NCBI RefSeq assembly: GCF_964194155.1
Contig: NC_135880.1
Location: 177,754,001 to 177,818,000 of the forward strand
Source: Cetorhinus maximus
Lineage: Eukaryota
Direction of reading: 5' to 3'
Length of the DNA stretch: 64,000 nt
The position numbers and the translations under genes were made by a program. The notes beneath the pieces were generated by a model. It did no database searches. It saw nothing but the letters and a program-made list of their open reading frames with translations, and had not been told where the DNA came from. Position 1 is the first letter of the stretch. Each line of letters starts with the position of its first letter. Shown in pieces: positions 300 through 60,850 of the stretch.

Positions 300-8185
<7,886 letters not shown>

Positions 8186-12927: not shown

Positions 12928-21677
<8,750 letters not shown>

Positions 21678-21954
21678 TCACTGTAGTAGTCTGAAAAAAT
21701 GACATTGATTTAGAAGATAACTTCATAATATGAAATGTATTAAATAGTAATTATCACCACAATTAGTAGTCAATTCCAAATGCACTACAGGCAAAACAAG
21801 GATGAAATGAGTTATGTCACCTTTCTGCATATAGCTGAACAAGCCCTCCCTTAACACCATGGCAAGACTACCCACAGAGCAAACTTACAAAGAAGTATGA
21901 AATACAAAAGATCCTCCAGTAGAAACTGAAATCACCAAACCACAAATCCCACAA

Positions 21955-23320: not shown

Positions 23321-24629
23321 TCAATAATGCATCATAAAAGTTATACAAAACAGAGCCCTTAAACTCGAGTTGTAGCATTTGACATAATATAACCCCCCTT
23401 CCCCCAACCCCACCTTCTGCACAGTGAATGGGTGCATAATTTCCTCTTTCAACCCATATTAAATACAAATCACAGAACAGCCTGCTCCTGTGCTGTAAAT
23501 TCTTCGGTTTCTTGCATCTTTATGCTAGCATTAGAAAATTTGTTTTAACCGCCTGCCCTGCCCTCGTTCTCACCCACCAAAATCCTGATTTCTCCCCCTT
23601 CACATATTATTGATCAGAAATTGGGAAAACTATCCTGCTCTTCAAGTATTGCCCTGGGACCCTCTACATCCACTTGAGCGAGGCAGGTGGAGTCAGTTTA
23701 ATGTCTTCTCTGAAAGACAGGAACTTTGGTACTGAACTTCTGCACTTAAATTTCTGGAGTTAGACACGGAACACACAGCATTCTCACTCAAGAGACAGGA
23801 GTGCTACTACCAAGCTTAGAGCCCATGTCTCTCCCACTGTATCTTCTTCAAAGTTCCAATTCTTCTAATGCACAAAGAGGGGGAAGAAATCTCACTGAAC
23901 AAACCTAATTTCTTTGCATCTTTCTTGTGTATTAATTTTTTCTCAATCACACAGCAGAGAAGGGTTAAAAAATTAAGAAAGCAAGCCAGTAGAGGGAATT
24001 TTAAGACAGACCTAACTGAATGGTGTAACATGTTCAGAGGCCTGAATGGGTGTGTCCTGTTCCCATCTTCCTAGGACATTCACCAAGTTCTTTGAAAGAG
24101 CTATCCAATTAGTCCTCCCCTGCAAATTTCTCCTTTTCAATTATACATCCAATTCCCTTTTGAAAGTTGCAATTGAATTTGCTTACACTGCCCTTTCAAG
24201 TCTTATATTCCTCTAAGTTTCTTCTCTTTACCCACTTGATTGAATGCATCATTCTGAATTGTAATTGCTCATAAGTATTTGCGCCACCCACATCCTCCCT
24301 TAGAGTTTTCCTCTGGAAACTGGACCAGTTCTAAGATGTCTGGCCAAAGATGATGACAACATGGTGGCAAATTCTGAGTTTTGTATTTCAGTCCATAGGT
24401 TTGAAATAGCAGATTTAAAAAGAAGTTGATTTTCATAGAAAGACCAGACTGATTGTGCTGGAAACTAGTCAGGCTATAGAGAATTATTGTTCTAAAGCAA
24501 ACAAAATGAACACAATCAAGGCATTGAGAGGTACTTGGTATTCAAAGTAGGTCCTTAATTTTGATGAATGATTCAACTTTGATGCAACAGGGGTGGTCAT
24601 CTGGCCCATCATGCTTGGGCCAGCTCTTG

Positions 24630-25070
24630 AAAAGAACATTAAGAAATAGAAGTTGAAGTGGGACAAATGGTTCCTGGAGCCTGCTCCACCATTTGATAAG
24701 GTCATGGCTGAACTTTCTTCCTCAACTCCATGTGCTTGCGCTACCCCATATCCCTTAGTATCCAACCCTCTGTCTTGAATATACTCAACAACTGAGCAGC
24801 CACATCTCTCTGGGTAGAGAATTCCAAGATTCACAACCATCTGAGAGAAGACATTTCTCATCTCAGTTCTAGATGGACAACTTGCTTTGAGACTACGACC
24901 CCATAGTTCTAGATTCCCCAGCCAGGGGAAACATCATCTCAGAATCTTATTTTTCAACAAAATCGCCTTCAAGTCTTCTGAACTCCTGAGAATATAGGCC
25001 CATTCTACTCAAATTCCCATCATAGGCCAACCTTTTCGTCCCAAGGAATCAATGTAGCAAAGCTTCACTG
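24630..25070 (-). mobile_element. CR1-type 3' fragment
   Basis: MRNVFSQMVVNL motif and CR1 3' UTR, antisense. Confidence 0.75.
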
Positions 25071-25099
25071 CACACAAAGCAATTAAGTTGTGTTGGTCT

Positions 25100-26047
25100 T
25101 GTCTTGTTTCTTTCTTTATCCCCATATGTTGCATTCAGGATTGTTGCCATGTAGCTGCTCACACCTCATTTAGATGCCTTTTTTTTATTCTATCCTTTAG
25201 CCTCATTGGCTGTTGCATCATGAAATCTTTTGTTATTTTATCTCCCCTGCCCCCCCCCCCCACCCCACCCCACCCATCATAGACCTTTTTTGTTCTTCCT
25301 ACCCCACTCCTTCCACTGGCTTAAAAGCTCTCAAGTTTCTATCTTTCTTCAGTTCTGATGAAAAGTCACCTCAACCTAAAAAGTTAACTCTGTCTCTCCA
25401 CAGATGCTGCCTGATCCAGAGTATTCCCAGCTTTTTCTTTTGTTTTTATGGACTTCAGATAGATATGCAGGTGCGCTAAAAAACTGGCAAATTCTCTTGA
25501 AACCCATCAAGGTGGGGAATGCAAATAAAATGGGTGACTGCCAACAAACCACAAACACCCCACACCTAGACTGAGAAGAGACAGGCAAGAATAAAAACAC
25601 AAAGCACTGGAAAAAAGCTCAGCCTGTCTGACAGCATCTGTGGTGATAGAAACAGAGTTTACATTGAGTCCAACAGGATGTTTCTTCGAAACCAGTTCCG
25701 AAGGAGTAATTTTTGACTCCAAACATTAACTTTATTTTTCTCTCTCCACGGATGCACCAGGCAAGCCACATATTTCCAGCACTTTTGTTTCTATTTCAGA
25801 TCTCCAGCTGTATTCTGCTTTTTACATAGAGAGATAGGCAGAGGGTTTTGTATTGTAAATGGGTGCAGTGATGATCACACACATGGGGCACAAAGTTGGG
25901 CTTCCCAGCCAGGCATAGTCAATCTTCTGAAGAAGGGTCATACAGACTCGAAATGTTAACTGTCTTTCTCTCCACAGATGCTGTCCGACCTGCTGAGTTT
26001 TTCCAGCACTTCGTTTCAGATTTCCAGCAACCGCAGTACTTTGCCTT
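25100..26047. mobile_element. Cluster of degenerate Penelope terminal units, including an old fold-back at about 25590-25820
   Basis: Repeated CTGAnGA...GAAA..ttaact..ctctccacagatgctg units at about 25350, 25695 and 25927, and inverted at about 25590-25690. Confidence 0.7.
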
Positions 26048-26050
26048 TAC

Positions 26051-26170
26051 CTGGAGTCACGTGGGAACTGAACGCTCGGTCACGTGACAGGCAGCAAGAG
26101 TCACGTGGTCGGTTGCCGGAAGTGACGTCGGCCACACCGGCGCCGGGAGGATGGGGGAGGGGGGCGGCGA
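26051..26170 (-). promoter_or_regulatory. GC-rich motif cluster in DNAJA1 intron 1: three GTCACGTG E-boxes plus an overlapping ETS/CRE site
   Basis: CACGTG at 26058, 26081 and 26102; CCGGAAGTGACGTC at 26116-26129; minus-strand donor CAG|GTAAAG at 26051/26050. Confidence 0.6.
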
Positions 26171-26671
26171 CAGCGAGGACACGGACTTGCCGCCCTCGTG
26201 TTTCAATCAATTAAATCCGGGATATATATATAATTAAAATTTAAATTAATAACAACCCCTGAAAAGACGCCAAGGGCGTCTCGAATCTAACATCCGAAAG
26301 AGAAACGAACAGAGGTTAGAGCCCAGCGTATCTTATTTATTTAGATAAAAGAGCCGGCGACGCGTAACCGGCAAAAAAACCGCAACGCGGCTATTGTTCC
26401 CCCGGCGGATCAAAAAAAAGACTGAAGGAAATAGCGCATAACTCCGATCAATTCATATAAAAAATACGTTTATGTTAAAGAACACCTCCCCCACACACAC
26501 GGAAAAGCTGGAATAGCCTCGACGGAAATTTTTTTTAAAACTAGAAGCTTCCCCTGATCATCCCGTCAAAAACCCCAGTTAATAAAATATAAATCATTCT
26601 CCAGATCCAAAGGGTAAAAACTCTTTCATGAGAATCTCTTGTCAGTGGGACCCCAGGAGCTCTGGGCTTAC

Positions 26672-26930
26672 CTCGAAGCTGCTCCTAGCAAAGCGGTGGA
26701 AACGCCGGGACGCTTCTAGAAATTTCTGCGCTTGCCGGCTCATCCGGGTCCCCCGGACGCGGCCGCGTGCTGACGTCACCCGCCCGGAAGTGTTGAGCCG
26801 CCGCCTCCACCCCCTTACTGAGCATGCGCGGAGCGCTGGCACTCAAGCAATGGCAACTCCCCCATCCGCTATGCTTGATTGCAGCACAAGCGCAACTCCA
26901 TAAACTGAGAAAGGCAGAACCTTCTGGAAA
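26672..26930 (-). promoter_or_regulatory. DNAJA1: DNAJA1 non-coding exon 1 and CpG-rich promoter with heat-shock elements
   Basis: Donor GAG|GTAAGC at 26672/26671; perfect three-unit HSEs cTTCtaGAAatTTCt (26713-26727) and aGAAccTTCtgGAAa (26916-26930); CRE TGACGTCA 26771-26778; ETS CCGGAAGT 26784-26791. Confidence 0.8.
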
Positions 26931-27129
26931 ATGCACAGTGTACCACCCCACCCCCAACCAAGGCGGTGGTTTCCTTCACCGCCCCCCGGATTGCCCTGGA
27001 GTCTCCAGGAATTGAAGATCAATTTCCAGGACGCTGCTGTGTGCAACCCTGGAGATATAGGGACATTAAAAAATCGATAGTTTTTTGTCATTTTCTTTGA
27101 AGATTTCTCCTTACCATTTGTAAACATAT

Positions 27130-27330
27130 TGAAAATGGAGGGGGAGAAAAGCTGTTTGGCTACCAGTCAAGCATCATCCAATTGGGTAATTCTTTTGCTT
27201 TCCAATTGGCGTAGGAAGGCACTGGGCAGTACGCCACAAGGATGGATGTGTTGGTCAATTAATGGCAAAAGAGTGGGGTCAAGTCATGTGATGAAACCTC
27301 CAGGCATATATTTAGTCACAGTTGGCATGA
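27130..27330 (-). repeat. Interspersed repeat (MITE-like); second copy at 62370-62590 in the opposite orientation
   Basis: The two ORF-track translations are homologous (RGWMCWxxNG..SHVMKPPGI); the 62370 copy begins tagggttgccaac. Confidence 0.7.
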
Positions 27331-27469
27331 CGCCCATTCAGCTGTTCAGTTCAGGGCAGCCACCGTGCCTCATAGTAGCACTCCATGTGTGTTTCTGAGT
27401 CAGAAAGATTAGCAGGTTCAAGCCCCACACTACCCACGCTGCCCCCCCAACTCCAGAGATTTCAATTGA

Positions 27470-27760
27470 GACGTTAAACTCATAGCCAACCCACCTTATC
27501 TGGTAGACACAAAGATCCTGTTTCACTATTTTGAAGAAATTAGGAGTTCTCGCTGTGTCCTGACCAATACTTATCCCTCAACCGAAAGCCACTCAAATTA
27601 TCGGGCCATGATCATCTTTCTGTTCGAGGGAGTTCACTGCGTGCAAATCAGCTGCCATGTTTCTACAGGTCAATGCTTCAAAAATACTGCATTGGCTGTA
27701 AAATGTTTTGGATCGTCCTGGGATTGTGCAAGGGCTATATAGATGCAAGATATTTCTTTT
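27470..27760 (+). mobile_element. SINE fragment, Deu-domain-like family
   Basis: Homologous to the 3' half of 48295-48760. Confidence 0.6.
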
Positions 27761-28329
27761 CCAATGAGATTTTTGTCTCTTTCCCCTTTTCACGTTTGAC
27801 CATGTGCCTCCTGAAACTCTTCTACAGCCACATCTCTTTCTTCAAGAAGCTAACTGCCTTAAAAGTTCTCATTAAAGGTCACCAGCTAGAAACTTTAGCT
27901 GTTTCTTTGGCCACAGATATTGCTTGACCTGCTAAGAGTTTCCAGCATTTCCTGTTTTTATTACTGATTGAAGCAGTCCCAGATTGTATTGATAAGCACT
28001 AGATTTAAAAAAAACACATGAAACAAAAACAGAAAATGCTAATATAAAAGCAAAATACTGCGGAGGCTGGAAATCGGAAATAAAAAAAGAAAATTCTTGA
28101 AAAATTCATCAGGTCTGTTTTTGGTTTTGATTTCTAGTATTTGCGCTTTTTTGATTTTGTGAAACAAAACAGTAGCCCAGAAAGCTCTGAGAGCACATTG
28201 TGTTTTGTAAACAAAACATGAGGAGAAGATAGACTATTTCTGCCTTTGTACAGTGTCTGTATCATTGTAATTAAATTATAACATTACCAGAACAAAAAGG
28301 ACTTACATAGGAGAGATAAGTTACATTTT

Positions 28330-29280
28330 TTTATTCAATCACAGCATGTGGCCATCGCTGGCAAGGCCAGCATTTATATCTCATCCCTAATTGCCTATGA
28401 GAAGATGGTGATGAGCCATCTTCTTGAACCATTGCAGAGCATTTGGTGTAGGTACACCCACAGATCCATTAAGGAGTTCCAATCGAGTGACAATGAAGGA
28501 ATGGCGATATGTTTCCAGGTCATTTTGGAGGGAAACTTTCAGGTGGTGGTGTTTCCATACACCAGCTGCCCTTGTGAGTGCTAGAGGTTGGGAGGTGCTG
28601 TCATAGAAGCCTTGGTGAGTTGTTGCAGTGCATCTTATTCTGCAGCCACTGTGCATCGGAGGGAGTAAATGTTCAAGGTCGTGGATAGGCTGCCGGTCAC
28701 TGGACTGCTTTGTCCTGCATGGTATCAGTGTTATTCCAGTCATCTAAGCAAGTGAAGAATATCACATTCCTAACTTGTGCCTTGTAGATGACGGAAAAGC
28801 ATTGGGGAGTCAGGAAGTGACTTATTTGCTGCAGGATACCCAGATGCTGACCTGCTCTTGCAGCCACAGTATTTATGTTTATGATATACCCAGGTTCCCA
28901 GACAATGACCCCCAGGATGTTGGTAGTGGAGATTCAACAATGATAATGGCATAGAATGTCAAGGGGAGGTGGGTAAACTCTTTCTTGTTGCAGGTAGTCA
29001 TTGCCTAGCACTTGTGTGGCTGAAAATTACTTGCCACTTATTAACCCAAGTTTGAATATTGTCCATGCCTGTTTCATTAGCTGAGGAGTCACGAATGGTT
29101 ATTGAACACTGTGCAATCATCAGCGAACATCCCTACCCCTGACCTTATGATGGAGGGAAGGTCATTGATGAAGCAGCTGAAAATGGTAGGGCCCAGGACA
29201 CTACCCTGAGGTCTCCTGCAACAATATCCTGGGGCTGAGAATTGGTCTCCAACAACCACAACCGTCTTCATTTGTGTTAG
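28330..29280 (-). mobile_element. CR1-like LINE 3' fragment whose tail is shared with a SINE family
   Basis: [28 protein letters not shown]; 3' tail ggcaattaggga...ctggccttgccagcgat. Confidence 0.85.
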
Positions 29281-29734
29281 TGTTATGAAACCATGTTTTA
29301 TGGAAAAAAATTACTTTATGAATTTGCAGCCTGGAAACCAATATTTGAATTTTTAGGAAGATTTAAACCACATTTCAATGACTTGTAATCACTATCAAAG
29401 ATGACTACACATTTGCATCACTGGACCATCTACATTTCAAGGCCATTAAGTGGAGCCAACATGTATGCATAGCCTCACCAGGAACAATTGCCTTGAAGGA
29501 GTATGAATAGGGGCCTCTCCTACTCATTAGGAAAGCAGTCAATCACTTGGGTACTCAAATGGTGGAGACAAACCAGCATTAGAGATAATCACTTCAGACA
29601 AAGGACTTTGGTTGAGAGAGGAATTCCCAACTCTAATGCAATCAAGTGGAATACAGTAGCCATGACCATATTTGGGTCACTGGACAGTAGGCGAGCAAAA
29701 GTCTGTACTATACCAGTATACTAAATTGAAAGAA

Positions 29735-30139
29735 ATACAAGTAAATTACTGTTTCATGTGGAAGGAGTGTTTAAGGCCTTGGATGGGGAGCAGAGAGGAG
29801 GTAAAAGGGCAGGTGTAACATTGCCTGTGCTTGCATGGAAAGGTGCCATGCGAAGGGGGGGGTGGTATTGGGGTGACTGAGGTATAGAACAGAGTGTCAC
29901 ATAGGGAATGGTCCCTTCAGACTGCTGTAAAAGGAAGGGGAGATGTGTTTGGTGGGACCATCATGTTGGAGGTGATGTAAATGGCAGAGGATGATCCATT
30001 GAATGCAGAAGCTGGTGGGGTGGAAGCTGAGGACAAGGGGAACCCTATCATGTTCTGGGTGGGAAGGGGAGAAGAAAGAAATGCAAGAAATGGGACAGTA
30101 CAAGACCCTGTCAACAATGCTAGATAGGGGGAATCCTTG
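29735..30139 (-). mobile_element. Penelope-like fragment that is the target of the LTR element and resumes after 35230
   Basis: DRVPLVLSFHPTS..IQWIILCH..HLQHD, a PLE post-RT segment. Confidence 0.7.
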
Positions 30140-31194
30140 TGTTACGGAAAGAATGGGGGTTAATTTCAACAGCACTAATTTCTCCTTTCACCACCCGTCC
30201 ATAAACAGAAAGATGTTTTTGCTTCCCCCTTTATAATTGGTGGCATATTTCCCAATTGCTTGGTTTTGGTCTGATCCAATTTCTATTAATAACTCCAAAG
30301 CAAACTCGAAATAGGATGAACTCAAAGGGTTAGTTTATTTGCACACCCTAAAACACAGAAGGATCACAACGTTGCCTCCATTGCATTCATTCAGTAAAAG
30401 TGCGATAGAGAAAAGAAAGATTTACAGTGAAGAGACCACAGGGAAATTAAATAGTGTTTCACGTGGGTTCCAGGGTCTAGAAACAAGGTCCAATGAGGTA
30501 TTCCTTCACAGGGGTTGGTAAGCTGGAAACCGATGTTGTTTAATTGACTTTTCCTCTGGTGTTGACTTCACACAATGAGATGGGCATGCAGAGATGATTC
30601 AGTCTTGTTGGTGATGGTACAGAATTTCCAGTAGAAGCAGTGTAGATGGGGCCTGGTGTCCAACCTGGGCCAGAGCTTCTTGACTGTGATGCTGCGAGTT
30701 AGATGGAGCCACAGGAGACTGAGACTTTGCAGTTCCACAAGGCGATGTTACTGGTTCCACAAGCTAGAGGACTATGTCACATGACTCCCATGTCTTCACT
30801 CTGGCTTTGACAAGGTGTATCCCTCCTTTTTCTCCACCATAACTTTTCTATGGTTCCATGGGTCCCCGTGATTGTCAAATATCTCAACCATTAAGAATTG
30901 AAAGCAAGGTTACAGGATCCTTTGTCTTAGCAGATGAGCATACTCCTGTTGACTGGCCTGGGTTATGAAATGCAGATGGCCTTTGTGTAGATTTCTTTGA
31001 ATTTGGGCTGTGCAGCCCACAATATTTTGTCTGTGGCTTTTCAGAGATAATGTTGTGCCAGTTTCCCTGCTTCTTTTGTTCGAGGGTCACAGACCAACAT
31101 AGATTCAGCCATTATAGGTCTTTGTCCAGTTTAAATTTTTTTTAGAGATAGTGATGAACATATCTTTTTAATTTTCTTTATATATATGGTCTTA
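30140..31194 (-). repeat. 3' LTR of the Gypsy element
   Basis: Colinear diverged direct repeat of 34213-35230. Confidence 0.88.
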
Positions 31195-34190
31195 TGAAGG
31201 AAGAATAGGAAGTAAAGAAGTATGCACTCATTCTCTCATTCACATGGCACATCAGACACGCAGCTAACAGGGGCAATGGCAATTCCCTGCTGCGTTTTCC
31301 TTTCTGGAGTTTAAATCTGGGTTAGTGCATCAACAAGGACATTGTCCTGTCCTGGGATGTGGAATGTTTAAGTGACCCGGGAAGTTTCGAGATCTGTCTT
31401 TTGGGAAAGTCTATTCGGGTCTAGAGTTCCAAATTCATTCTGGGGCAGGATCAGGCATAAGCAAAGCCATTGATTTCAGAACTCTGGCTGTCCAACTCCT
31501 GATTAAGTGTCTTCTAAAGGGTCTGGGGGTTTTATAGGGTGTCTGGCTTTCAGGGGATGAGTGATGGTTAAGCTGCTCTGGGGTATCCACAGGGGAATGC
31601 TGGGCATCTCACTCTGTGAGTGCCAGGTCCTTTGATCCGAGGGCTGAGCTGCTCCTGTCCAGCTTAGCTCCTCCCTGTCCACTTTGGTAACCTGTGGGTT
31701 CAGCTGTTCAAACCCAGGGATGGTGATTAGGCTGATTGTCAGGAGATTGGGCTGTTTTAATGGAATTTTGGTCTCTTTAGGGGATTTGGGTTCAGTGTCC
31801 AGCTCGAGCGCTAGCACAGCCGAGGTGTTCCAGTTTCTGTTGCTAGGTGCTTCAGGATGGCATGGCAACAGGTCTGCTCCTGAACTTGGGCCAGCCTTTC
31901 TGGGCCCGGATGTTAGGTAGGGTGCCTTCGGGAGGGGCTTCACCCGCATCCATACCAGGTAGGGCTACAGTGCTGTAGCCTGGGGGGATTTTTAAGGATC
32001 ATTTTAAGTGCAGTGGACAACCCTGTCAGGTTTCCTTGCAATTCTGCATTAAGCAGGGGTGAGTATGGGATCCAATCTGGTTGGGATCCCTCTGCTAGTC
32101 AGCTGGGTAGTAGGCTCCGTGTCTTTTGGAACACTGCTGCCCTCAGGTGGATGGTCAGCTCTCACTGTACCACCTAATGGCTTTTCAACTAAGTGAGACA
32201 TCACCCTCACCCTTTCTGGGCGAATTTGCGAACTTTCCTGGTCCCCATTTAAATTCGCCATACAGCTACCAGCCAGACCAATCAATGGCTTCTTAGCTGG
32301 GGCCTTTGGATTGGGAGGAGGCGCTGTCCCCATGAAACTTGCTCATGACCCCTGGAACACAACTGCCCTCAAGTGGAGATGCAGCCCTCGCCCAATGTTT
32401 ATAGGTACTATTTCACCCATTTGGACCTCTGGAACTTCCCCAGCTTTCTGCACTCCTGCAGATTTCTGCTGGTTGATGTTGGCCTCTTTTCTTTCACTGG
32501 CTAACACCTTGCTGCCAGCCAATCATTTCCAAGGAGGAAATCGATTCCTGCTACTAGTAGTTCAGGGACAACTCCTACTGTGACAGGGCCTGAAACAAGG
32601 TCACAGTCTAGGTAGACATTATGGAGGGCTGCAAACACAGATCCTCCTCCCACTCCGCTGATCAGTGCTTTGGCCTTCAGGGAGTACTCTGGGGTGATGG
32701 GAGGGTAGATTTAGGTTTCCTTCCACCATTAAGGCCCCTATGTCCCCGAGCAGTAAAATGGACTTACTCACATTCTGGGGCAGATAAGGGGACACTGTTC
32801 CTGAAAGGACAAAACTCCGGAAGCTCTCCGGGAGTTTGTCCGGCTTGGACACACATAGAGCCGTACCCTCTAAAGGGTAATTTTCTGTACCGAGAATCTC
32901 TGTCTGCTCTGCTGCACTACCCATTGGGGCGTTTTTCACGGTCTACTCAAATGAAACCCTATTAGACCTACAGGCTTCCCTTGCAATCACCAGCACTCGG
33001 GCCTGGAATGGCCTATTTTATTGCAATGGAGACACACCGGATTCTGAGGGTTCTCCTTTTGGGCTGCAGGAGCGTTTCTCGCACCCTCCTTTGTGTCTTC
33101 TTCTCTGGGCGAGGGGCTTTTTCTATCTAGATCACCCTGCTTATCTTTCCAATGTTCATGTGAAGGTTTGGAAAGGGTCCGACTTGAGTGACCAGGCCTA
33201 TGGCTGAGATTGTAGCTGTCTGCTCTGACTGCTGTATCCCAGGCTGTGAGGATTCTCTGCTCCTCCAAATGCATCTGCAGGTTGGAGGGTAAGCAATTTT
33301 TGAATTCCTCCAACAATACCAACTCATGCAACTCCTCATAGGCACGTGGGATTCTTAGGGACCTTCCCCATCGGTTGAACGCGATTTGCCTCCAGGACTA
33401 ACTTGTAGGCACTTAGGATGGCAGCCTTGGTTTGCTCATAATTCATGGACACATCTGGAGGCAGCTTGGAGCAGACCCCTTGGGCTCTCCCTGTCAGTTG
33501 CCCTTCAATTAAAAATGGCCAGCTATCAATTGGCCATTTTAACTGTCCTGCTACTTTCTCAAAAGTGGCAAAAAATGACTCCGCATCACTCTCTTCAAAT
33601 TTAGGAATGACTCTAGCATACTTGAGGGCCTCAGAGAGTGATTCTGGGTTAGAAAGATAAGGGGCGCAATCGGGTGGAGGGAGATTTTTCCCTCGCAGCT
33701 TCCAATTGTCTGGTCTCTCTCCTTTGAGCTGCTAGCTCCATTTCCAATTTTCAGAGCTGGAATTCTCTTTCCCTCTCCTTGAATTCTAGCTATATTCTGA
33801 ACTTTTCCAACTCGAATTTGGCTAGGGGAGGGGATTTAGAGTCATGGTTGAGCTCTACATCTAATTGCTCTATCGCTAACGTGTGATCCAAATGTTCTAC
33901 CAACAACTGGATCAGTTCACTTCTCATCGCTTTACTGGCCTAGCCACAGCTTTCAGTTGTTCTGTGCTAAGGGACACTAAAGTTTCACCATTCAAATTTC
34001 CTTGCTTGACCCACATTTGGGCATCAAACATTGCCATCTTCTTAGTGATAGGAAAAAGGAATTTGCTGTGGTTAGTGATTGTTTTTAAATTTGTCCAGCA
34101 CATGGGTTTTCCTCTTAGCTTCCAATTGACTCTTTTATATCAGATTTGGCTCCTGTCTTAACTCGGACTCTGGTCAAATTCAAATGGATG

Positions 34191-34210
34191 ATCCCGGATT
34201 CGAGCTCCCA
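34191..34210 (-). other. Primer-binding site, tRNA-Pro-like
   Basis: TGGGAGCTCGAATCCGGGAT versus the classical tRNA-Pro PBS TGGGGGCTCGTCCGGGAT. Confidence 0.75.
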
Positions 34211-34212
34211 AG

Positions 34213-35230
34213 GTGGGGGTGTAATTTAAACAGCACTAATTTCTCCTCTTATCACCCGTCTGTAAACAGAAAGGTGTTTTGATTTGCTTCTCCCTTTATA
34301 AGTGGTGGCATATTTCCCAACACTTCGGTTTTGGTGTGGTCCAATTTCTATTAATAATCCCACAGCAAACTTGAGATTGAGTTTATCCTAAGGGTTAGTT
34401 TATTTGCACACACTCAAATCGCGGAAGAAGGGTCACAACGTTGCCTCCTTTGCATTCATATAGCAAGAGAGTTAGAGAAAAGAAAGATATACAATGCAGA
34501 GACCACAGAGAAAAGAAATAGTGTTTCACATGGGTTCCAAAGTCTAGAATCAAAGTCCAATGAGGTATTCCTTCAGAGGTTGGTAAGCTGAAAACCGATG
34601 CTGTTTAATTCATTTTTATGGTGGTGTTGACTTCACACGGTGAGATAGGCACGTAGAGATGAATCAGTCTTGTAGTTGATGGTACAGAATTTCCAGTAGA
34701 AGCAATGTAGATGGGGCCTGGTGTCCAACCTGGGCCAGAGGTCATTGTCTATGAAGCTGCTAGCTAGATGTTAAAATGACAGACTGAGACTTTGCAGTTC
34801 CGCAAGGTAATATTACTGGTTTCACAAGCTAGAGGTCTATGTCACATGACTCCCACCTCTCCACTCTAGGTCCCCAAGATTGTTGAATGTCTCAACCATT
34901 AAGAACTGAAAGGAATGTTGCAAGGTCCTTTGTCTTAGCAAACAAGCAGACTCCTGTTGGCCAGCTTGGGTTATGAAATGCAGATGGCCTTTGTCTAGTT
35001 CTCTTTGAATTTGGTCTGTGCAGCCCACAATGTGTCATTAGTGGCTCTTCAGAGGTAATGATGTGCGATTTTTCCCTGATACTGTGAGGTAGCTTCTTTT
35101 GTTCGAGGGTGACATAAATCCAGCCATTTTAGGTCTTTGTCCTGTTTTAAATTCCTTTAGCGATAGCAATGAGCATACCTCTATATATTTTATAATAAAA
35201 ATATACAGTGTGAGGTCTTAGTCTCTTACA
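34213..35230 (-). repeat. 5' LTR of the Gypsy element
   Basis: Direct repeat of 30140-31194; begins TGTAAGAG on the minus strand; adjacent to the PBS. Confidence 0.88.
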
Positions 35231-35399
35231 CTTGGTTATGAAACATCAAGAGCGCTGGCAAGGAAGTTTGAAACATCAGAATAGATGCAATAGAGACAGA
35301 GAAACAACAGTCCAAAAGTAGAACTTGCATTTATAAAGTGCTTTTAACACAGTAACAATTTGTATTTATATATCACATATAAAGTAATGAAATACAACA

Positions 35400-35760
35400 A
35401 CTTTAATTTGTATAGCACCTTTAATGTAATTCAAGATCCTAAGGTGCTTTGCAGGCACATTATAAAACAAGTATGACACCAAGCCACATGTGGAGATATT
35501 AGGTCAGATGACAAAAGCTTGGTCAAAAAATTAGGTTTTAAGGAGTGTCTTAAAGGAGAAAATGAGGTAAAGGTGGACTGGTCTAAGGAGGGAATTCCAG
35601 AGCTAGAGCCTTTGGCAACTGAAGGCACAGCCACCAATGGTGGAGCAATTAAAATTGGGGTTGCATAAGAAACCAGATTTAGAGGAATGCAGGTATCTTC
35701 CAGGGTCATGGGATTGGAGGAGATCATTGATAGGGAGGTGCAAGGCTATGAAAGGATTAC
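35400..35760 (-). mobile_element. L2-type 3' end fragment
   Basis: Homologous to 21955-22330, 39325-39640 and 57440-57950. Confidence 0.7.
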
Positions 35761-36111
35761 AGGCAGCCTAGGAGTCCATGAATTGACTTTTAACAGGCGG
35801 GGGGACTGCTCCATGCAACACTCTCTGCTCCTGATCCCCAATGGAGCAATCGTTCAAAGATGGCAAGAACCCCCTTAAAAGATTTTTCTGGATAAAATTA
35901 GATAAGGCATTTTCATCTGCGCCTGTCTTGTGAATTGAAGCAGTAGCTGTGAACAGTGGGGGAAAAGGAGATGGGAAGATCTCGTACAGAACTTAGAAAA
36001 ACTCACTTCAACTAAAGTCATCTGTCTTGATTTTTGCGCCGGTTGCCTTTTCGCGGGCAGGGGATGGCCGAGCTCTGGGCAACTGCCAACAAGGTCCAGC
36101 TTTACAAAGAT

Positions 36112-36303
36112 AAAAACAAAAAGCTAAAAGCTACTGCGGATGTTGGAAATCCAAAACAAAAACAGAATTACCTGGAAAAACTCAGCAGGTCTGGCAGCAT
36201 CGGTGGAGAAGAAATCAGTTAACGTTTCGAGCCTTCACGGCCCTTCGGCAGAACTGAAGCATAGTTAGGAGAGGGGTGAAATATAAGCTGGTTTAAGGTG
36301 GGG

Positions 36304-36334
<31 letters not shown>

Positions 36335-37354
36335 TTGAGGGTGTGGTGATTGTGGAGATAAGCAAGCAGTGATAGGAGCAGATAATCAAAAGATGTCACA
36401 GACAAAAGGATCAAAGAGGTGTTGAAGGTGGTGATATTTGTCTAAGAAAAGTGCTAATTAAGAATGGAAGACAGGACACTCAAAGTACAGCTCTAGTGGG
36501 GGTGGGGTGGAAAAGACTAACAAGGTTTTAGTTTTAGATTTAAAAATAATGGAAATAGGTGGGGAAAGAAGAATCTATATAAATTATTGAAAAAAAAGGT
36601 GGGGGGGGAGAAACGGGGTGGGGATGGGGGGAGGGGGAGTTTAAGATCTAAAGTTGTTGAATTCAATATTCAGCCCGGAAGGCTGTAAAGTGCCTAGTCG
36701 GAAGATGAGGTGCTGTTCCTCCAGTTTGCGAACTGTTGCCAACGCAAACTGGAGGAACAGCACCTCATCTTCCGACTAGGCACTTTACAGCCTTCCGGGC
36801 TGAATATTGAATTCAACAACTTTAGATCTTAAACTCCCCCACCCCGTTTCTCCCCCCATCCCCACCCCGTTTCTCCCCCCATCCCCACCCCGTTTCTCCC
36901 CCCATCCCCACCCCGTTTCTCCCCCCCCCTTTTTCAATAATTTATATAGATTCTTCTTTCCCCACCTATTTCCATTATTTTTAAATCTAAAACTAAAACC
37001 TTGTTAGTCTTTTCCACCCCACCCCCACTAGAGCTGTACTTTGAGTGTCCTGTCTTCCATTCTTAATTAGCACATTTTCTTAGACAAATATCACCACCTT
37101 CAACACCTCTTTGATCCTTTTGTCTGTGACATCTTTTGATTATCTGCTCCTATCACTGCTTGCTTATCTCCACAATCACCACACCCTCAACTTCTCTCTC
37201 CCCCCCCCCCACCTTAAACCAGCTTATATTTCACCCCTCTCCTAACTATGCTTCAGTTCTGCCGAAGGGCCGTGAAGGCTCGAAACGTTAACTGATTTCT
37301 TCTCCACCGATGCTGCCAGACCTGCTGAGTTTTTCCAGGTAATTCTGTTTTTGT
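36112..37354. mobile_element. Fold-back Penelope-like insertion with 17-bp TSD
   Basis: Arms 36155-36730 and 36743-37355 are near-perfect inverted repeats with a 12-nt spacer. Inner ends encode QRKLEEQHLIFRLGTLQPSGLNIEFNNFRS* (GIY-YIG C-terminus). TCCAGCTTTACAAAGAT at 36095-36111 and 37355-37371. Confidence 0.92.
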
Positions 37355-37364
37355 TCCAGCTTTA

Positions 37365-37620
37365 CAAAGATGGCGGTCTGGCGGCCTGACCTCTCCAGTG
37401 TACGCATGTGCGACGCCGCAGCAGCATGAGCAGCGCGAAAATGCGCGCGCGCATTCCTCACCTGCCAGGTAAGGCACGCGTGACATGGCCCCTGTTTCTT
37501 TGCGCGTGCGCAGGCGGATAGCTCCGCCTTGCCCCGGGGTGGTGGGGGGCGGAGTGCATGCCGGGGAGTGGGGCAGTGGAAGCTCGTCGCAGTGGCTGTC
37601 GGGTAGGAGTGAGGCGGCTC
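37365..37620 (+). promoter_or_regulatory. APTX: APTX CpG-rich promoter and candidate first exon ending at 37468
   Basis: YY1-like AAGATGGCGG; NRF1-like TGCGCGCGCGCA (37442) and TGCGCGTGCGCA (37501); donor CAG|GTAAGG at 37468/37469. Confidence 0.7.
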
Positions 37621-37904
37621 TTGTTGTCGGTGAGAATAACTTTAAGTTGTTTTTTCCATTCCCCCCCCCCCTCCTTTAAAAGCGGAGCATCGAGACGCGA
37701 AATTTAAGCGACACATTTCCTCTTTTAAAAAGTGTTTCCTAGGTCCTGGTGTGGCAGCTTGCTTGGCTGCAGATTCCCTAAACCCAGGCCTGCTGACTCC
37801 AGGCTCCATCAGGCAGGTGGGACTGACTGGCTTCAGTAACAGGGGCCGGGGCAGATTCAGTAATAACCCTGAAAGGGCAAATGGATAATCACTTGAAAAG
37901 GACA

Positions 37905-38630
37905 AAAAATAACGTTGCCTGGGCTGGAGAGTTTTAGTTATGAGGAGAGATTGGATGGACTGGGGTTATTTTCCCTGTGCAGAGGAGATTGGGGGGGGGA
38001 CATGATTGAGGTGTATAAAATTATGAGGGGTGTAGATAGGGTAGACAGGAAGGAACCTTTCCCCTTGGTGGAGGGATCAATAACCAGGGGGGCATAGATT
38101 TAAGGTAAGGGGCAGGAGGTTTAGAGGGGATGTGAGGAAGAATTTTTTCACCCAGAGGGTGGTGGGAATCTGGAACTCGCTGCCTGAAAGAGGCAGAAAC
38201 CCTCAACATTTAAGAAGCATTTGGATGTGCACTTGCGATGATGCCACGGCATACAAGGGCCTAGTGCTAGAAAATGGGATTAGACTAGTTAGGTACTTGT
38301 TTGACCGGCGGAGACTCGATGGGCCTTTTTCTGTGCTGTAGACCTCTATGACTCTTATAAGACCATAAGACATAGGAGCAGAAATTAGGCCATTTGGCCC
38401 ATCGAGTCTGCTCCGCCATTCAATCATGGCTGATAAGTTTCTCAACCCCATTCTCCCGCCTTCTCCCCATAACCTTTGATCCCTTTACCAATCAAGAACC
38501 TATCTATCTCGGTCTTAAATACACTCAATGAACTTGTATGCAGGAAGGAGTAGGGCAGTGGGCTCAAAGGGATAGCTCTTTCAGAGAGCTGGCACAGGAA
38601 TGATGGGCTGAATGGTCTCCTTCTATCATC
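37905..38630. mobile_element. CR1-type 3' fragments (sense 37905-38350; antisense 38358-38532)
   Basis: [31 protein letters not shown]; taagaccataagacatagg tail. Confidence 0.85.
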
Positions 38631-38711
38631 ATTCTAATCTGCTCTGCTAAATATTGTGATGTATGCCCAATCACTTTAAACACTTTTTCCGTGGCGCTTT
38701 AAGCATCATAG

Positions 38712-39045
38712 TTGTCAGCCGTGGTTTGGTTGGTTTCACTCTTGAGTCAAGAGAGTTGTTTGTTCGAGTCCCTGCTCCAGAAGACATGTGCATGTAATCT
38801 AGGCTGACACTCCCCAGCTCCAGTACAGAGGGATTTTCGTGTTATTGGAGGTGTTGTCTTTCAGATAGGATGTTAATCTGAGGCCCCAGTTGCCCTATGA
38901 GGAGAGTAATCTGGTCACTAACATAGATTGTGGAACCTTGCTGTGCACAAATTGGCTGTCACTGTGACTGCACAGCAAACATAGTCTATTCAATGTAAAG
39001 TGCTATGGGATTATCAAAGGTGTAATATAAATGCAAGTCTTTTTA
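38712..39045 (+). mobile_element. tRNA-derived SINE, Deu-domain-like family
   Basis: Homologous to 48295-48760. Confidence 0.65.
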
Positions 39046-39667
39046 TTTCTTTCAGTTTGACTGATTACAGTCACAAGTAACATTTGCTTCCTCCCCAGTG
39101 TTACTGTTTTACCTTATGTTTGCACTTTATTTAGATTAATGGCTTGGATTCAGAAACACAACTGGTTGGTTAATTGTAGCTATGTACATTTTCAAGGGAA
39201 GCTGTTAAATTGTGTTTAATGATTAGATTCTGGAGCTGTGTGTATCTACAGGGTATATGAAACATTAATTAGAGCAAATTATTTTTGACTTTTATAATTG
39301 AACGCATTACAGCAATTTACATTGTTTATTGCTTTTAACATAGTAAAGTCTAAGATGCTTCACAGGAATGATTATAAAGCAGAATTTAACACTGATCCAC
39401 ATAGGGAGGTAATGGGACAGTTAGCCAGCAGCATGGTCAAAGAGGTAGATTTTAAGGAGCATTTTAAAGGAGGAGAGAGAGGCAGAGAGGTTTAAGGAGG
39501 GAATTCCACAGCTTAGGGCCTAGGCAGCTGAAGATATAGATGCCAATGATGGAATGAGAGGCCAGAATTGGAGGAGCGCAGAGATCGTGGACGGTTGTAA
39601 GGCTAGAGGAGATTAGAGCTAAGGAGGAATACCTCAGAGCATTCTTAATCTTCTGTCTTCCAGCACG

Positions 39668-39797
39668 ATGCGAGTTTGTTGGTTGGTGAGTAAAGATGGG
39701 AGGCATCAACCGATACAACTTGCACACTCAGTTTGTGTGTTGATTGGAAGAAGCCCCGAAACTCGAATTACAGATAAAAAATGCTCACGGCATCAAG
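39668..39797 (+). CDS. APTX: APTX first coding exon (FHA)
   Basis: cag|CACGATG; [43 protein letters not shown]|gtgag. Confidence 0.93.
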
Positions 39798-42700
39798 GTG
39801 AGTGGTAACCTCGCTGGCGGTTTTCACAGGTTCTTGTGCAATAATGAGTAAATCGAAAATGTTGCTTTTATTAGGCTTTCTACACATGATAATGAGAAGG
39901 GGTTAAAATAGGGATACAGAATCCTGACCAGCAGTTGCAGTCTGATAAAATGGAAGCAGAGATTACACCGGAAACTGTTGAACTCAATGTCACTTAATGT
40001 AAAGTGCTTCATTGAAAGGTGAGGTGCTGTTTCTCGAGCTTGTGTTGAGCTTCATTGGAACAGAGTGAGAGTCCGAGGTCAGGGAATTAAAGTGACATGC
40101 AGCTGCAAGCTCGGGGCCACGCTTGCAAACTGAATGGAGGGTCCTGCAAAGTGGTCGCCCAGTCTGTGTTTTGTTTCATCAATGAAGAGGAGACCACATC
40201 ATGAGCAGCGAATACCACTAGATGACACTGCACCATACACGACCCAAAATCAAACACTCTCCATATGATCATGTCCTCCAAATGCTTATCATGAGCTATT
40301 TTAATCCTTTATTAACTTAATTTGCTTAGAATGTGGATTGAATGGGGGGACCAGTTAGCTGGATGGATAGTGTATAGTTCAGAATAACACCAACAACTAG
40401 GGTTCGATTCCTGTTCTGGCTGAGAAAGACTTGAACCTACCTCCTTGCCCTGTCCCTGAGAGTGGAAGGCAATGGCAAACCTATAAAAACTGCCAAGAAA
40501 CCAGCTCAGGATGAAGCATCAGCAGACAATAAGCCAAGGAGTTGCCTTTGGGGAGAACACACACAATGGATTGTGTATGAAAACCAAAAGGATTAAAGCA
40601 ATGGTAGTCAGGAGAAATACGTTAGAAGAAGCTTGAGTGAAGATTGAGTTGAATGGTGTTACACTGGAACAAGTAGATAAGTTTGTCTACTTAGGACAAC
40701 AGAAAATGGTTGATGTGATGCTGAAGTCAGAGGAAGGATAGAGACAGCCAGAAGTAATTTTGTGAAGGTGAAGGATGTGTTAACAACAGGAAATCTCAAA
40801 CTTGTAACAAGAAAATAACTCCTAAAATGCTACATTTTATCCACTTTCCTGCATGCCTCAGAAACCTGGACAATAAATAAAGATCTGTGGAAGAAAATAG
40901 AGACCTTTGAAATGTGGAAGCTAAGACGTATGCTTAAAATTCTCGATGGGCTGAATGGCCTACTCCTATTTTGTATGTTCTTAACAGCAAGACTTTAATC
41001 TCTAATGGTGCTGAGACCAAATGTATTCCCCATACCACTGTTCCAGCTGATTGCAGACTGTGGATTGAATCTGGAAGCTTGCTCTACAGTTAGACTCAGT
41101 ACCTCAATGAATAAACTTGCTGAGCCATGGCAGGTATTGGTTGGGAGGGGTTGTGGGGTCAGATGTGTATGTCACTAATACTTAGTGTTACCAACTTTGT
41201 GACTTACTGATGAGCCCTGGGACTTGCAGAAGTTTTATTAATGCTTGTACTTCTAAGTTTTAATGTAGCTTTCAATATGTGTAGACTTTCCAGCATAAAG
41301 TACGAGCATTAAAACAAAATCCACTGAGTCTCATAAATTAATGATAAAAAGCTGGCACAGGCACAATGGGCCAAATGGCTTCCCTCTGCTGATTCATTTT
41401 ATGCCCCAGATATTCCAGTTTCTGGATAGTTGGAGACTAGATGAACCCCACAAGATACGCTATGGGACAGTTTGGAAGTCCTGATGCACTGACTCTGGGA
41501 ATTGCTGGGAAAATTTGAGCTTCTGATTGGTGGTTTCCCTACTCCCTGGGATCCTCCCAACTCTTGAGTTAGAGTCGGAGACTTCAGACGGTTCCGACTT
41601 TACCTGGATAGTTACCGAGGAAATATTTGACAAAGTCCTACTCCCCCAACCTCACACCCTACTCCCCCCCCCCCCCCCCCCCCCCCCCCGGCCCCCGACC
41701 TGACCTCACCACCTTACTCCCCCTCGCCCCCGACCTCACCACCCTACTCCCCCCCACCCCCCGACCTGACCTCACCACCTTACACCCCCTCGCCCCCGAC
41801 CTCACCACCCTACTCCTCCCCCGGATCTCACCACCCTAAACTCCCTCCCCACCATGACCTGACCTCATCACCCAACTCTTTCCTCCCCTCACCCCCGCCC
41901 ACTGACCCCTCTGACCATGCCAAGTGGCTACAATAAAGTCGTGCTATTCGCAGGGGTTATGTTCCCGCTATACTTCACAAACGGCGAAATGGCGAACGAG
42001 GAACATGTTTTTGAATGGGACTCAGTTAGATGGGTTCCAGCCATGCGAGGGCAGCATTAGTTTGGCAGTTACTCTGCAGCAAATTGTTCTGACTGTATCT
42101 ACTCACAAGCACTTCTACCAGGGTTATTGGATAATGGTGTGGAGCAGGAAAGCTGATTTCTCGGGCCAATTAAATAAATTCCACAAAGACATCAGTAAGT
42201 GTACTCCATGAATAACTGACCCCAACAATAACCTGCTGTATCCTCCATTTTAACACAGCATTCCAATCCACAGGGTTCCTTCCTGATGTTTCACTAACCC
42301 GGCGGGTCTTGTCCAACAGTGTTAAATTTGCCAGAGTATATCTGCCTCGGCTTTCAAAGACCTTTTGCAAAATTATTGATGAAACTGATACCTTAGAGTA
42401 AATTAACCGATCCCTCATTCAAGCTGTGCTCAAAGGGTGTGCTTGTCAAAGAATCAGTGCAGAGATTCAGACATTTCAAATGTGGATAAGCAAACATCAT
42501 ACACCGCTTTGCCCATCGCGTCGGCAAAGTACAAAGCGCTGGTAAGTGAAAATGCGAACAAGGAAGTCACGAAAGGCAGGAATTTACTCCACTGCTCCCT
42601 CAACCTGACCTCAAGACCCACCTGACTGCCACCCTACCCCCTTACCTGCTTACTTGACTGTACCCCCTTGTCCACCCTACCCTCTTACCTTGCCGATCCT

Positions 42701-48700: not shown

Positions 48701-51700
48701 TTGAGATGTCCAGTTGCTGTGAAAGGCTCTATATAGTGCTAGGTTTCTTTACTACTTTTCCTTAGGACACTTGTTCAAGTTGCTGAAAGACTGTAAAATA
48801 TAAGCAAAATACTTCAGATGCTGGAAATCCGAAATAAAAACAGAAAATGCTGGAGAAACTCAACAGGTCTAGCATCTGTGGAGAGAGAGAAATAGAGTTA
48901 ACTTTTCAAATCGTATGACTCTTCTTTAGAGCTCTGAAGACGAGTCATATGGACTCGAAACATTAACTCTGTTTCTCTCTCCACAGATGCTGCCAGACCT
49001 CTTGAGTTTTTCCGGCATTTTCTGTTTTTATTTCTGAAAGACTGTGCCAGCTGACCACACTACCATTTATCTACAGCAATAGAAACATGCTAATTAATTC
49101 AGCAAATATAGATACCTGAGAACAGACAGACCTTGAAACTCTGTTTGGAAGTTTATAATTTGTGTGAAAGAAATTATTGATAGAACAATTAGGAAATTGT
49201 TAAACCTTATTTTTCCATAGGCTGCTTAATAGTTCTTTTGTTGGTTAATAACCTTTTTGCTGTTGAATGTAATGTTTATGGGTATTTCAGTGCTTACCAT
49301 TCCACTCATCGAGCTTTGCCATTTATACTCAAATGACAATAATAATAATTTTAAATGAGCAGAGAATTACAGAGAATGTACAGCACAGAAACTACCTATT
49401 TGATTCAGTTGGTCTGTGCTGGTGTTTATGTTCCACATGAGCCTCCTCTCACCCTATCAGCATGTCCTTCTATTCCCCTCTCTCTTGTGTTTATCTCGTT
49501 TCCCCTTAAATTCATCTATACTATTCAACTACTCCCTGTGATAACAAGTTCCACATTCTCACCACTCTCTGGGTAAAGAAGTTTCTCCTGAATTCCTTAT
49601 TGGATTTATTAGTGACTATCTTATATTTATGGCCTCCTTTTTGGTCTCCCCCACAAGTGGAAACATCTTCTCAATGTCTATCCTATCAACCCCTTCATAA
49701 TTTCAAAGACCTCTCTCAAGGCATCCCTAAGTCTTCTCTTTTCTACCCCATCGGCTCAGTTTTCCCTGATAGTTATAACTTCTCAGTTCTGGTATTGTCA
49801 GCTGCACTCATCCAGTCAAGTGGGGAGTATTCCATATCATTCCTGACTTGAGTTGTAGAGGGTGCACAGTCTTTGGGGAGTCAGGAGGTGAGTTAATCAC
49901 CACTGAATTCCCAGCCTCTGACCTGCCCTTGTAGCCACAGTATTTATATGGTTGGCCTACTTAAGTTTATGGTCAATGATGACCCCAAGGATGTTGATTG
50001 TGGGAGAAATCAGCGATGGTAATGCTGTTGAATGCCATGACAGAGTTAAAAGGAAGAAATAATTGGAGCTTGTCAGAAAGGTATGGCAGTACGGGGGGAA
50101 TTTTAATTTACTTACAGACTGGAAAAATCAGATGGGCAGAGGTAGCATAGATGAGGAGTTAACAGAAATAAAAATAAAAATACCTGGAAAAACTCAGCAG
50201 GTCTGACAGCATCTGCGGAGAGGAACACAGTTAACGTTTCGAGTCCGTATGACTCTTCAACAGAACTAAGGAAAATAGAAAAGAAGTGAAATATAAGGAC
50301 CAGTGATAGGTGGAGATAGCCAAAAGATGTCATAGAGAAAAGGACAAAGAGGTGTTGAAGGTGGTGATATTATCTAAGGAATGTGCTAATAAGTGACATT
50401 AAGGGTGAACACCTTTTTGTCCTTTTGTCTATGACATCTTTGGCTATCTCCACCTATTACTGGCCCTCTATCCAGCTCTACCTGTCCCACCCCCCCCTTA
50501 AACCAGCTTATATTTCACCTCTTTTCTATTTTTCCTTAGTTCTGTTGAAGAATCATACGGACTCGAAACGTTAACTGTGTTCCTCTCTGCAGATGCTGTC
50601 AGACCTGCTGAGTTTTTCCAGTATTTTTATTTTTGTTTTGGATTTCCAGCATCCGCAGTTTTTTGCTTTTATCGAGGAGTTAACAATGTTTTCAAGATAG
50701 TTCTTAGAACAGCATGTTCTGGAGCCAACTAGAGAGCAGGCTATACTAGACCTGGTATTGTGTGACGAGATAGGATCAATTGATAACCTCATAGTGAAGG
50801 CACGACTAGGTAGCAAGCGATCATAATATGATTGATTTTTACATTCAGTTTGAGGGAAAGAGGAGTAGGTCCAAGACTAGTATTTTAAACTTAAATAAGG
50901 GCAATTATGAGGGCATGAAAGCAGAGCTAGCTAAAGTGAACTGGCAAATGAGGTTAAGGGGTAGGTCAACATAAGTTCAGTGGCAGACATTTAAAGGGAT
51001 ATTTCAGAATGTACAGAACAGATACATTCCAATGAGAAAGAAAAATTCCAAGGGGAGGACCCACCATCCGTGGTTAACTAAGAAAATTAGAGACCCTATC
51101 AGCAGTATCACAGTATCTTTACAGTGTAGAAGGAGGCCATTTGGCTCATTGAGTCTGCACTGGCTCTCTGAAAGAGCATTCCACCTAGTCTCACTCCCCT
51201 GCTTTATCCCCATAACCTTGTATATTCTCACTTTTCAGGTTATGGGGATAAAGCATGGTTTCTCTCTCCACACAGATGCTGCCAGACTTGCTGAGTTTTT
51301 CCAGCATTTTCTGCTTTTATTTCAGATTTCCAGCTTCTGCAGTATTTTGCTTTTATCATGTTTAATTTATTAGAGTTATTTTAGGAGTCACATGGTGCTT
51401 GTACTGTACTTAGATTTCCAGGAGGTATTTGTTAAGGTGCCAAATCAAAGGTTATTGCAGAAAATAAAAGCTCATGATGTAGGTGGTAACATTGGCATGG
51501 ATAGAAGATTGGCTAGCTACCAAGAAACAGAGTAGGCATAAATGGGTCACTTTTTGGCTGGCAGGATGTAATGAGTGGTGTGCCACAGGGATCAGTGCTG
51601 GGGCCTCAGCTTTTTACAATTTATACAAATGACTTAGATGAAGGGACCAAAGGTATGGCTGCTGATGACACAAAGATAGGTAGGAAAGTAAGTTGTAAAG

Positions 51701-60740: not shown

Positions 60741-60850
60741 ATAATCGGGAGAGAAACAGCATTGTTATCCCATCTTAATAACGAAAGGCAGCCACTGAAG
60801 GGGCTGGTTTGTTTTGCAAATGTAAGGAAATAATCGAAACAGAAACAGCC

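Follow-up and report, generated by a model that had tools for sequence, protein, structure and literature searches.

An initial annotation placed a 1.26-kb near-perfect palindrome in the putative core promoter of APTX, within a 64,000-nt stretch of the basking shark (Cetorhinus maximus) genome that we call the window and from whose first letter all positions are counted. The locus raises three questions: what the palindrome is, how it was formed, and whether its presence matters to the gene. On the first, our analysis indicates that the palindrome very probably arose in a single retrotransposition event of an endonuclease-bearing Penelope-like element (PLE), probably of the Neptune type, which landed at the 5' edge of the APTX CpG island.

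Structure and affinities of the insert

The palindrome is a 1,243-bp insert (36112-37354) bounded by perfect copies of a target site duplication (TSD; Table 1). When both ends were allowed some slack, a TSD search gave a score of 17 at the insert and at most 8 in 300 random position pairs. The arms align as four colinear inverted blocks of 168, 157, 139 and 115 nt with 95-99% identity. Outside the C/G tracts they show 0 substitutions in 502 aligned columns, together with 5 gap columns, one of which is an internal 1-nt indel while the other 4 are taken to be segment-edge effects. The near-identical inverted arms and their 12-nt spacer had already been recognized in the initial annotation, and our alignment bears this out; it likewise confirms that the arms differ mainly in a G-run and an amplified 23-bp unit. 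Further differences are a small change in the C/T tract beside the 23-bp unit and the 1-nt indel. Three features had been overlooked: a 43-bp extra at the left end, hereafter the tail, and an ORF remnant and a hammerhead motif in the arms. The tail terminates in a short AGCTTTT stutter that is absent from the other copies in the window.

Table 1. Positions of the insert, its parts, related PLE copies and the adjacent APTX features in the window.
Feature	Position	Strand	Basis or remark
TSD, left copy, TCCAGCTTTACAAAGAT	36095-36111	+	17/17 match, spacing 1260
TSD, right copy, TCCAGCTTTACAAAGAT	37355-37371	+	overlaps YY1-like AAGATGGCGG (37367-37376)
PLE tail, 43 bp, left arm only	36112-36154	-	without partner in right arm; aligned with other window copies
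Left arm, 5'-truncated PLE 3' end	36155-36730	-	arm alignment
Right arm, 5'-truncated PLE 3' end, tailless	36740-37354	+	arm alignment, comparison with other copies
Head-to-head junction	36731-36742	.	AACTG (inverted copy of CAGTT 9 bases upstream), then TTG-C-CAA
G26 run	36300-36325	+	right-arm counterpart is C11
23-bp unit, 3.9 copies, right arm only	36837-36926	+	G4-type pattern on minus strand
GIY-YIG endonuclease ORF end, left copy, 29 codons and stop	36641-36730	-	tblastn 29/29
GIY-YIG endonuclease ORF end, right copy, 30 codons and stop	36740-36832	+	homology to P0141
Minimal type I hammerhead motif, left copy	36221-36251	-	motif scan; core CUGCCGA
Minimal type I hammerhead motif, right copy	37259-37289	+	motif scan; stems I and II fold
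Head-to-head pair	25588-25823 (profile matches); 25577-25840 (whole)		TSD 11 bp, 1 mismatch, marginal
Head-to-head pair (palindromic insert)	36119-37368 (profile matches)		TSD 17 bp
Head-to-head pair	48799-49037 (profile matches); 48783-49045 (whole)		TSD 12 bp
Head-to-head pair	50161-50671 (profile matches); 50153-50685 (whole)		TSD 12 bp
Solo tailless PLE 3' end	14068-14232		own 12-bp TSD at 14068/14221
CpG-rich fringe left of insert	36030-36094	.	5 CpG in 65 bp, O/E 0.83
Main CpG island with candidate non-coding APTX exon	37372-37771	+	32 CpG in 400 bp
First coding exon of APTX	39664-39797	+	ATG at 39668

The ORF remnant points to the origin of the arms. It aligned with the C-terminus of a shark ORF with reverse transcriptase (RT) and GIY-YIG regions (P0141; 18 of 28 residues identical, pairwise E 9e-13), which matched Pfam GIY-YIG above the cut-off (E 8.6e-5) and RVT_1 below it. 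By itself the 30-residue remnant had no Pfam match. Searched against 1.84 billion representatives, it retrieved 20 proteins at E up to 0.001, one of which extends upstream into a GIY-YIG-like domain whose GIY-YIG match lies below the cut-off; a search with that domain returned 6 longer proteins, including 3 shark ORFs that are uncharacterised. RVT_1 matches, again below the cut-off, were present in 3 of the 4 long homologues, and P0141, P0143 and P0144 contain a CX4CxxC linker. According to the excerpted text of PMC8557442, a C-terminal GIY-YIG domain and a CX2-5CxxC linker mark the Neptune and Nematis clades; unlike such elements, the truncated insert is missing both the linker and the RT region. 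The clade call is based on homologues of the 30-residue remnant, and the assignment to a Neptune-type element, made from protein likeness, is probable, with Nematis as the alternative. Two of the 20 matches (P0006 and P0007) were set aside because they resemble chance repeats. Host gene models P0008, P0009 and P0145, among them a skate myocardin, end in or contain the PLE peptide of the remnant, P0008 being a skate neuromedin-U receptor model with a PLE-derived C-terminus; this is probably annotation run-through into a repeat.

Both arms also carry the hammerhead motif, with the core CUGCCGA and not CUGANGA; the core has a C where other copies carry A or U. Its fold was no better than shuffles (z -1.06), and an Rfam scan of 35500-38000 returned 11 matches, all under gathering scores and none to a hammerhead; these sub-threshold matches were mostly generic miRNA hairpins at the palindrome centre. 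Minimal type I hammerheads are known from metazoan PLEs, where pairs occur on opposite strands 100-700 bp apart (PMC4209133, in part). The shark motif, a putative ribozyme, resembles those in its short stem I, its stem II, the extra base before stem II and a palindromic minimal stem III, and differs from them in its core and in the approximately 1 kb between its two copies. Because sequence on either side of the expected hammerhead cut is present, the template RNA appears to have been uncleaved.

To place the insert among its relatives, we used a profile of the last 144 bases of the family, built from 7 window copies that match it by construction. The window contains 16 profile matches, 8 of which form 4 head-to-head pairs including the insert, and in 4 of 4 pairs the tail is on one arm only. 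The tailless arms of the three other pairs stop at model positions 110-114 of 144. In the 48.8- and 25.6-kb pairs, which have almost no spacer, truncation falls exactly at the 5' boundary of the hammerhead motif; the 50.2-kb pair has approximately 37 extra bases on one arm. Among 300 random position pairs, 1 reached a TSD score as good as that of the oldest pair. A very small candidate for a fifth pair (28045-28134) was left out of the count, having no credible TSD (score 4). The solo tailless copy has its own TSD, which indicates that the inner site is an ordinary terminus of an insertion. Decayed fragments of PLE ORFs lie at 29689-30139, 39965-40213, 18225-18404 and 3873-6443; they derive from the RT thumb with the linker, from GIY-YIG, and from a more distantly related RT/EN family.

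Read depth shows clearly that the family of the insert is highly abundant. Depth over the insert was 1.2-6.7 million in run X1 against 61-138 in low-depth unique bins (summed contig depth, not copy number), and depth in raw reads of run X21, another sample under the same species label, was in the thousands over the insert and at most about 2 on the unique flanks. Reads of all 4 runs compared, out of 24 listed, have loose ends at 36739/36740, where the family continues upstream; this continuation had 0 matches in the 64-kb window.

Formation of the palindrome

The layout of the insert has precedents. The typical PLE unit, as presented in the part of PMC8557442 consulted, couples an inverted 5'-truncated copy, placed beside the 5' end, with a terminal tail of 30-40 bp on one side, and the corresponding part of PMC3846280 describes inverted pLTRs of which one bears a 31-bp tail, 8-10 bp TSDs in rotifer examples, and head-to-head as the commonest arrangement. 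With the endonuclease-bearing units of these two sources the shark insert shares head-to-head copies, the one-sided tail, a variable TSD, 5' truncation, a palindromic junction and a hammerhead motif in the repeat. It differs in that both copies are cut to approximately 0.6 kb, so that the whole insert is palindromic, and its 43-bp tail and 17-bp TSD are longer than the ranges given there. We therefore regard it as an ordinary recent head-to-head PLE insertion of a layout that has already been described.

Given a PLE origin, we lean towards a route with two separate primings. The GIY-YIG endonuclease of the element would cut the target on both strands, at points 17 nt from each other. Of the resulting 3'-OH ends, one would prime reverse transcription at the inner start site, yielding the tailless right arm, and the other would prime at an outer site, 43 nt further 3', yielding the tailed left arm. 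One uncleaved RNA, or RNAs from one source locus, would serve as template for both primings. Both cDNAs would halt about 0.6 kb in and be joined end to end, and fill-in at the target would yield the TSD. The arms share variants (mirror positions 36674/36799, and the hammerhead variant) that most family reads lack, so they derive from one source or have been homogenised. Such a route recalls twin priming in L1 elements, in which both target ends prime cDNA and an inversion with a TSD, without duplication, results. The likeness lies in the two-ended priming and the inverted product with its TSD; unlike the L1 product, the shark insert contains the same segment twice. In the excerpted text of PMC11167929, an Anolis PLE protein, for which a dimer is predicted, cleaves the target on both strands and extends them, begins reverse transcription at two RNA sites bracketing the tail, and inserts RNA with a dead ribozyme. 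No two-priming model for PLE palindromes was found in the literature searched, outside which most subscription journals lie.

A PLE origin is also compatible with a fold-back route, which we consider possible but less probable: a tail-primed cDNA would have snapped back and been copied as DNA, and the mirror arm thus formed would have been trimmed by the endonuclease at the tail boundary and joined. The truncation points of the two arms are only about 3 nt apart, and the centre reads CAGTT-TGCG-AACTG, then TTG-C-CAA; self-priming accounts for this near-zero spacer and small central fold-back no less well than two primings do. The 48.8- and 25.6-kb pairs are likewise nearly spacerless. Self-priming was proposed from junction palindromes in the part of PMC3846280 seen here, and tail formation via endonuclease resolution in that of PMC8557442. 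Against fold-back, the solo copy with its own TSD stops at about the same tailless site, and priming on both strands at two RNA sites occurs in vitro (PMC11167929, in part). The right arm, moreover, retains a base that is missing from the left arm and present in another window copy, which would be unexpected in a copy of the left arm unless the left-arm loss came later. The extra bases on one arm of the 50.2-kb pair also speak against a mirror copy. The data do not decide between the two routes, both of which we infer; two primings remain the one that we slightly prefer.

The insert and the 5' region of APTX

On sequence evidence, the gene beside the insert is APTX, on the plus strand. This agrees with the initial annotation: the FHA exon matches PDB 3kt9, the first coding exon matches 49 of 66 candidates, of which the named ones are all aprataxin bar one shark 'hypothetical protein', and the exon peptides are identical to RefSeq basking shark APTX in 6 of 6 cases and to white shark APTX in 4 of 6. 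Head-to-head with APTX on the minus strand lies a gene starting near 21.6 kb, which we take to be DNAJA1-like from its J-domain and zinc-finger motifs. Upstream of it is a CpG island at about 25.7-27.2 kb (25700-27250), which may drive upstream APTX starts too. This island contains CCGGAAGT motifs at 26116 and 26784 and has PLE 3' ends at its left edge (25588-26049). Elsewhere in the window are a single-exon actin-like ORF downstream of APTX (60782-62113, 444 codons stop to stop, Pfam Actin E 6e-104) and a broken gag-like ORF (32990-33731) with a SCAN match below the cut-off, which is probably an LTR retrotransposon remnant.

The candidate exon in the main CpG island ends at the donor CAG/GTAAGG (37468/37469) identified by a donor scan. 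The fringe on the other side of the insert is probably the former 5' edge of the island, severed by the insert, because it holds 5 CpG, a number reached by only 7 of 931 other 65-bp bins. The motif TTTCGCGG occurs once in the window, at 36049, within this fringe. Also unique in the window is AAGATGGCGG at 37367, presumably a YY1-like motif; the reported overlap of the 17-bp TSD with it is real (17/17 between TSD copies), and the insert duplicates part of the motif via the TSD. The proposal that the insert displaced upstream elements of APTX thus keeps its basis in the separation of the CpG-rich fringe from the main island, and is weakened in its description of the site as the core promoter. 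The GTTGCC/GGCAAC half-sites adduced for it carry little weight, because they occur 32 times in the window; the two that were cited (RFX-like) are 30 bases apart.

Transcripts of APTX can also begin further upstream. An acceptor lies 4 bases before the ATG of the first coding exon, which implies upstream exons. White shark RefSeq APTX isoforms X1/X2 use an exon corresponding to window positions 28501-28614, the residues that start these isoforms being encoded at 28501-28609 and the donor lying at 28614. Relative to this exon, the basking shark sequence has a 1-nt shift and a stop, with the donor kept. Basking shark RefSeq isoforms X1/X3 start with MSTM, for which an upstream exon ending in ATGAG or ATGTC is needed. 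There are 4 ATGAG/GT candidates in 21000-39663 (at 30493, 34560, 35562 and 36705), all upstream of the right insert junction. The candidate at 36705 is inside the left arm, and its donor, GAG/GTGCTG (36709/36710), is the poorest consensus match of the four; GAG/GTAAAG at 35566 is nearer the consensus. The white shark exon and the basking shark MSTM isoforms together indicate that APTX has further-upstream 5' exons. The insert would be intronic for the 28.5-kb exon and for 3 of the 4 MSTM candidates and exonised in one candidate case, a reading that assumes that the annotated genome equals the window and that there is a single splice to 39664. Run X15, whose RNA origin is a guess, covered neither the island nor the first coding exon (depth 0) and gives no evidence on expression.

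Two other features of this region were noted. The right arm carries a donor-like CAG/GTAATT at 37336-37344, 16 bases before the TSD, which is one of 3 sites scoring 8/9 in 26000-39660. The candidate island exon has an upstream ATG whose 19-codon ORF (37370-37429) begins in the YY1-like motif, and from 37427 onward there are upstream ATGs out of frame with APTX; these upstream ATGs would dampen translation if the island exon is included in the mRNA.

APTX most likely tolerates the insert, since the greater part of the island remains on its side and the gene has 5' exons further upstream as well. That it is functional, cutting the promoter from upstream elements, altering starts or expression, or acting through a cruciform or RNA hairpin, seems unlikely. 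Such an effect would be in keeping with the CpG fringe left of the insert, the TSD in a motif unique in the window, the hairpin of -715 kcal/mol predicted for the palindrome as single-stranded DNA, and the MSTM candidate donor inside the left arm. However, the insertion left the main island, donor included, unbroken on the side of the gene; a lamniform relative has 5' exons lying upstream; the left-arm donor is inferior to that at 35566; and neither arm has lost CpG relative to the other. Palindromes of this type are, in addition, frequent here, and the structure as such is therefore no rarity. A more elaborate version, which we consider doubtful, holds that a fixed palindromic PLE rewired the APTX 5' end in this shark lineage: the proximal island would be split at the YY1-like site, transcripts starting in the left remnant or further upstream would read into the left arm and then either splice out at its donor, 36709, to yield the MSTM isoform, or contain within an intron a 1.2-kb RNA hairpin accessible to editing or to small-RNA processing, and the base-perfect joints would record two separate RT passes over one RNA.

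Age, allelic state and significance

With 0 substitutions in 502 columns, the epaulette shark mutation rate of 7e-10 per base per generation (PMC10587355, in part) gives an upper bound of approximately 4.3 million generations for the age of the insert, although arm-to-arm conversion could conceal a greater age. Both the 50.2-kb pair (12 mismatches in 198) and the 48.8-kb pair (12 in 98) have more diverged arms and are thus older than the insert. Its earlier description as a young insertion thus holds in that it is recent and has a TSD, with young to be understood as relative, up to about 4 million generations being allowed.

Two contigs of run X1, which may be the assembled sample, cover 35635-36115 and 37334-37671 and match there with 0 differences, each holding one TSD copy within its proper surroundings. 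Neither is interrupted at the TSD edge, the point at which an empty allele would diverge, which is a weak sign that this sample is without the empty allele; the suggested polymorphism of the insert is not supported. The empty-site joint from 36111 to 37372 was not among the best 15 of 945 joints, which are mostly repeat joints, and a metagenome scan with the TSD and five flank bases gave 0 matches. Run X8, from another organism, had 0 depth in bin 35888-36031.

Two further explanations are very improbable. A foldback or MITE-type DNA transposon with the arms as terminal inverted repeats would account for inverted arms accompanied by a TSD, but the insert ends are unequal by 43 bp, TSD length ranges from 11 to 17 bp between copies, the arms correspond to the 3' end of an RT and GIY-YIG element, pair centres are not the same from pair to pair, and 8 of the 16 family matches are unpaired. 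An assembly or chimeric-read fold-back artefact can scarcely be reconciled with contigs that cross both junctions, unique flanks that differ between left and right, TSD copies identical over 17 bp, a tail present at one end and stopping where other copies stop, indels specific to each arm, and three older pairs of the same layout with diverged arms, even though the centre junction is on none of the contigs listed, the junction contigs enter the insert by only 4 and 21 bases (below the 31-letter bridging rule), and run X1 possibly comes from the assembled sample itself.

No description of this insert locus was found in the literature searched, which leaves most subscription journals outside. 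As a structure the insert adds little, its layout being known and recurring four times in 64 kb, and its location is mildly interesting. A change in APTX start sites or dosage, had the insert caused one, would make it a natural promoter mutation in a DNA-repair gene. For the PLE family, it offers a clean specimen for the question of how these elements produce inverted copies and one-sided tails, which the excerpted texts of PMC8557442 and PMC11167929 leave unresolved.
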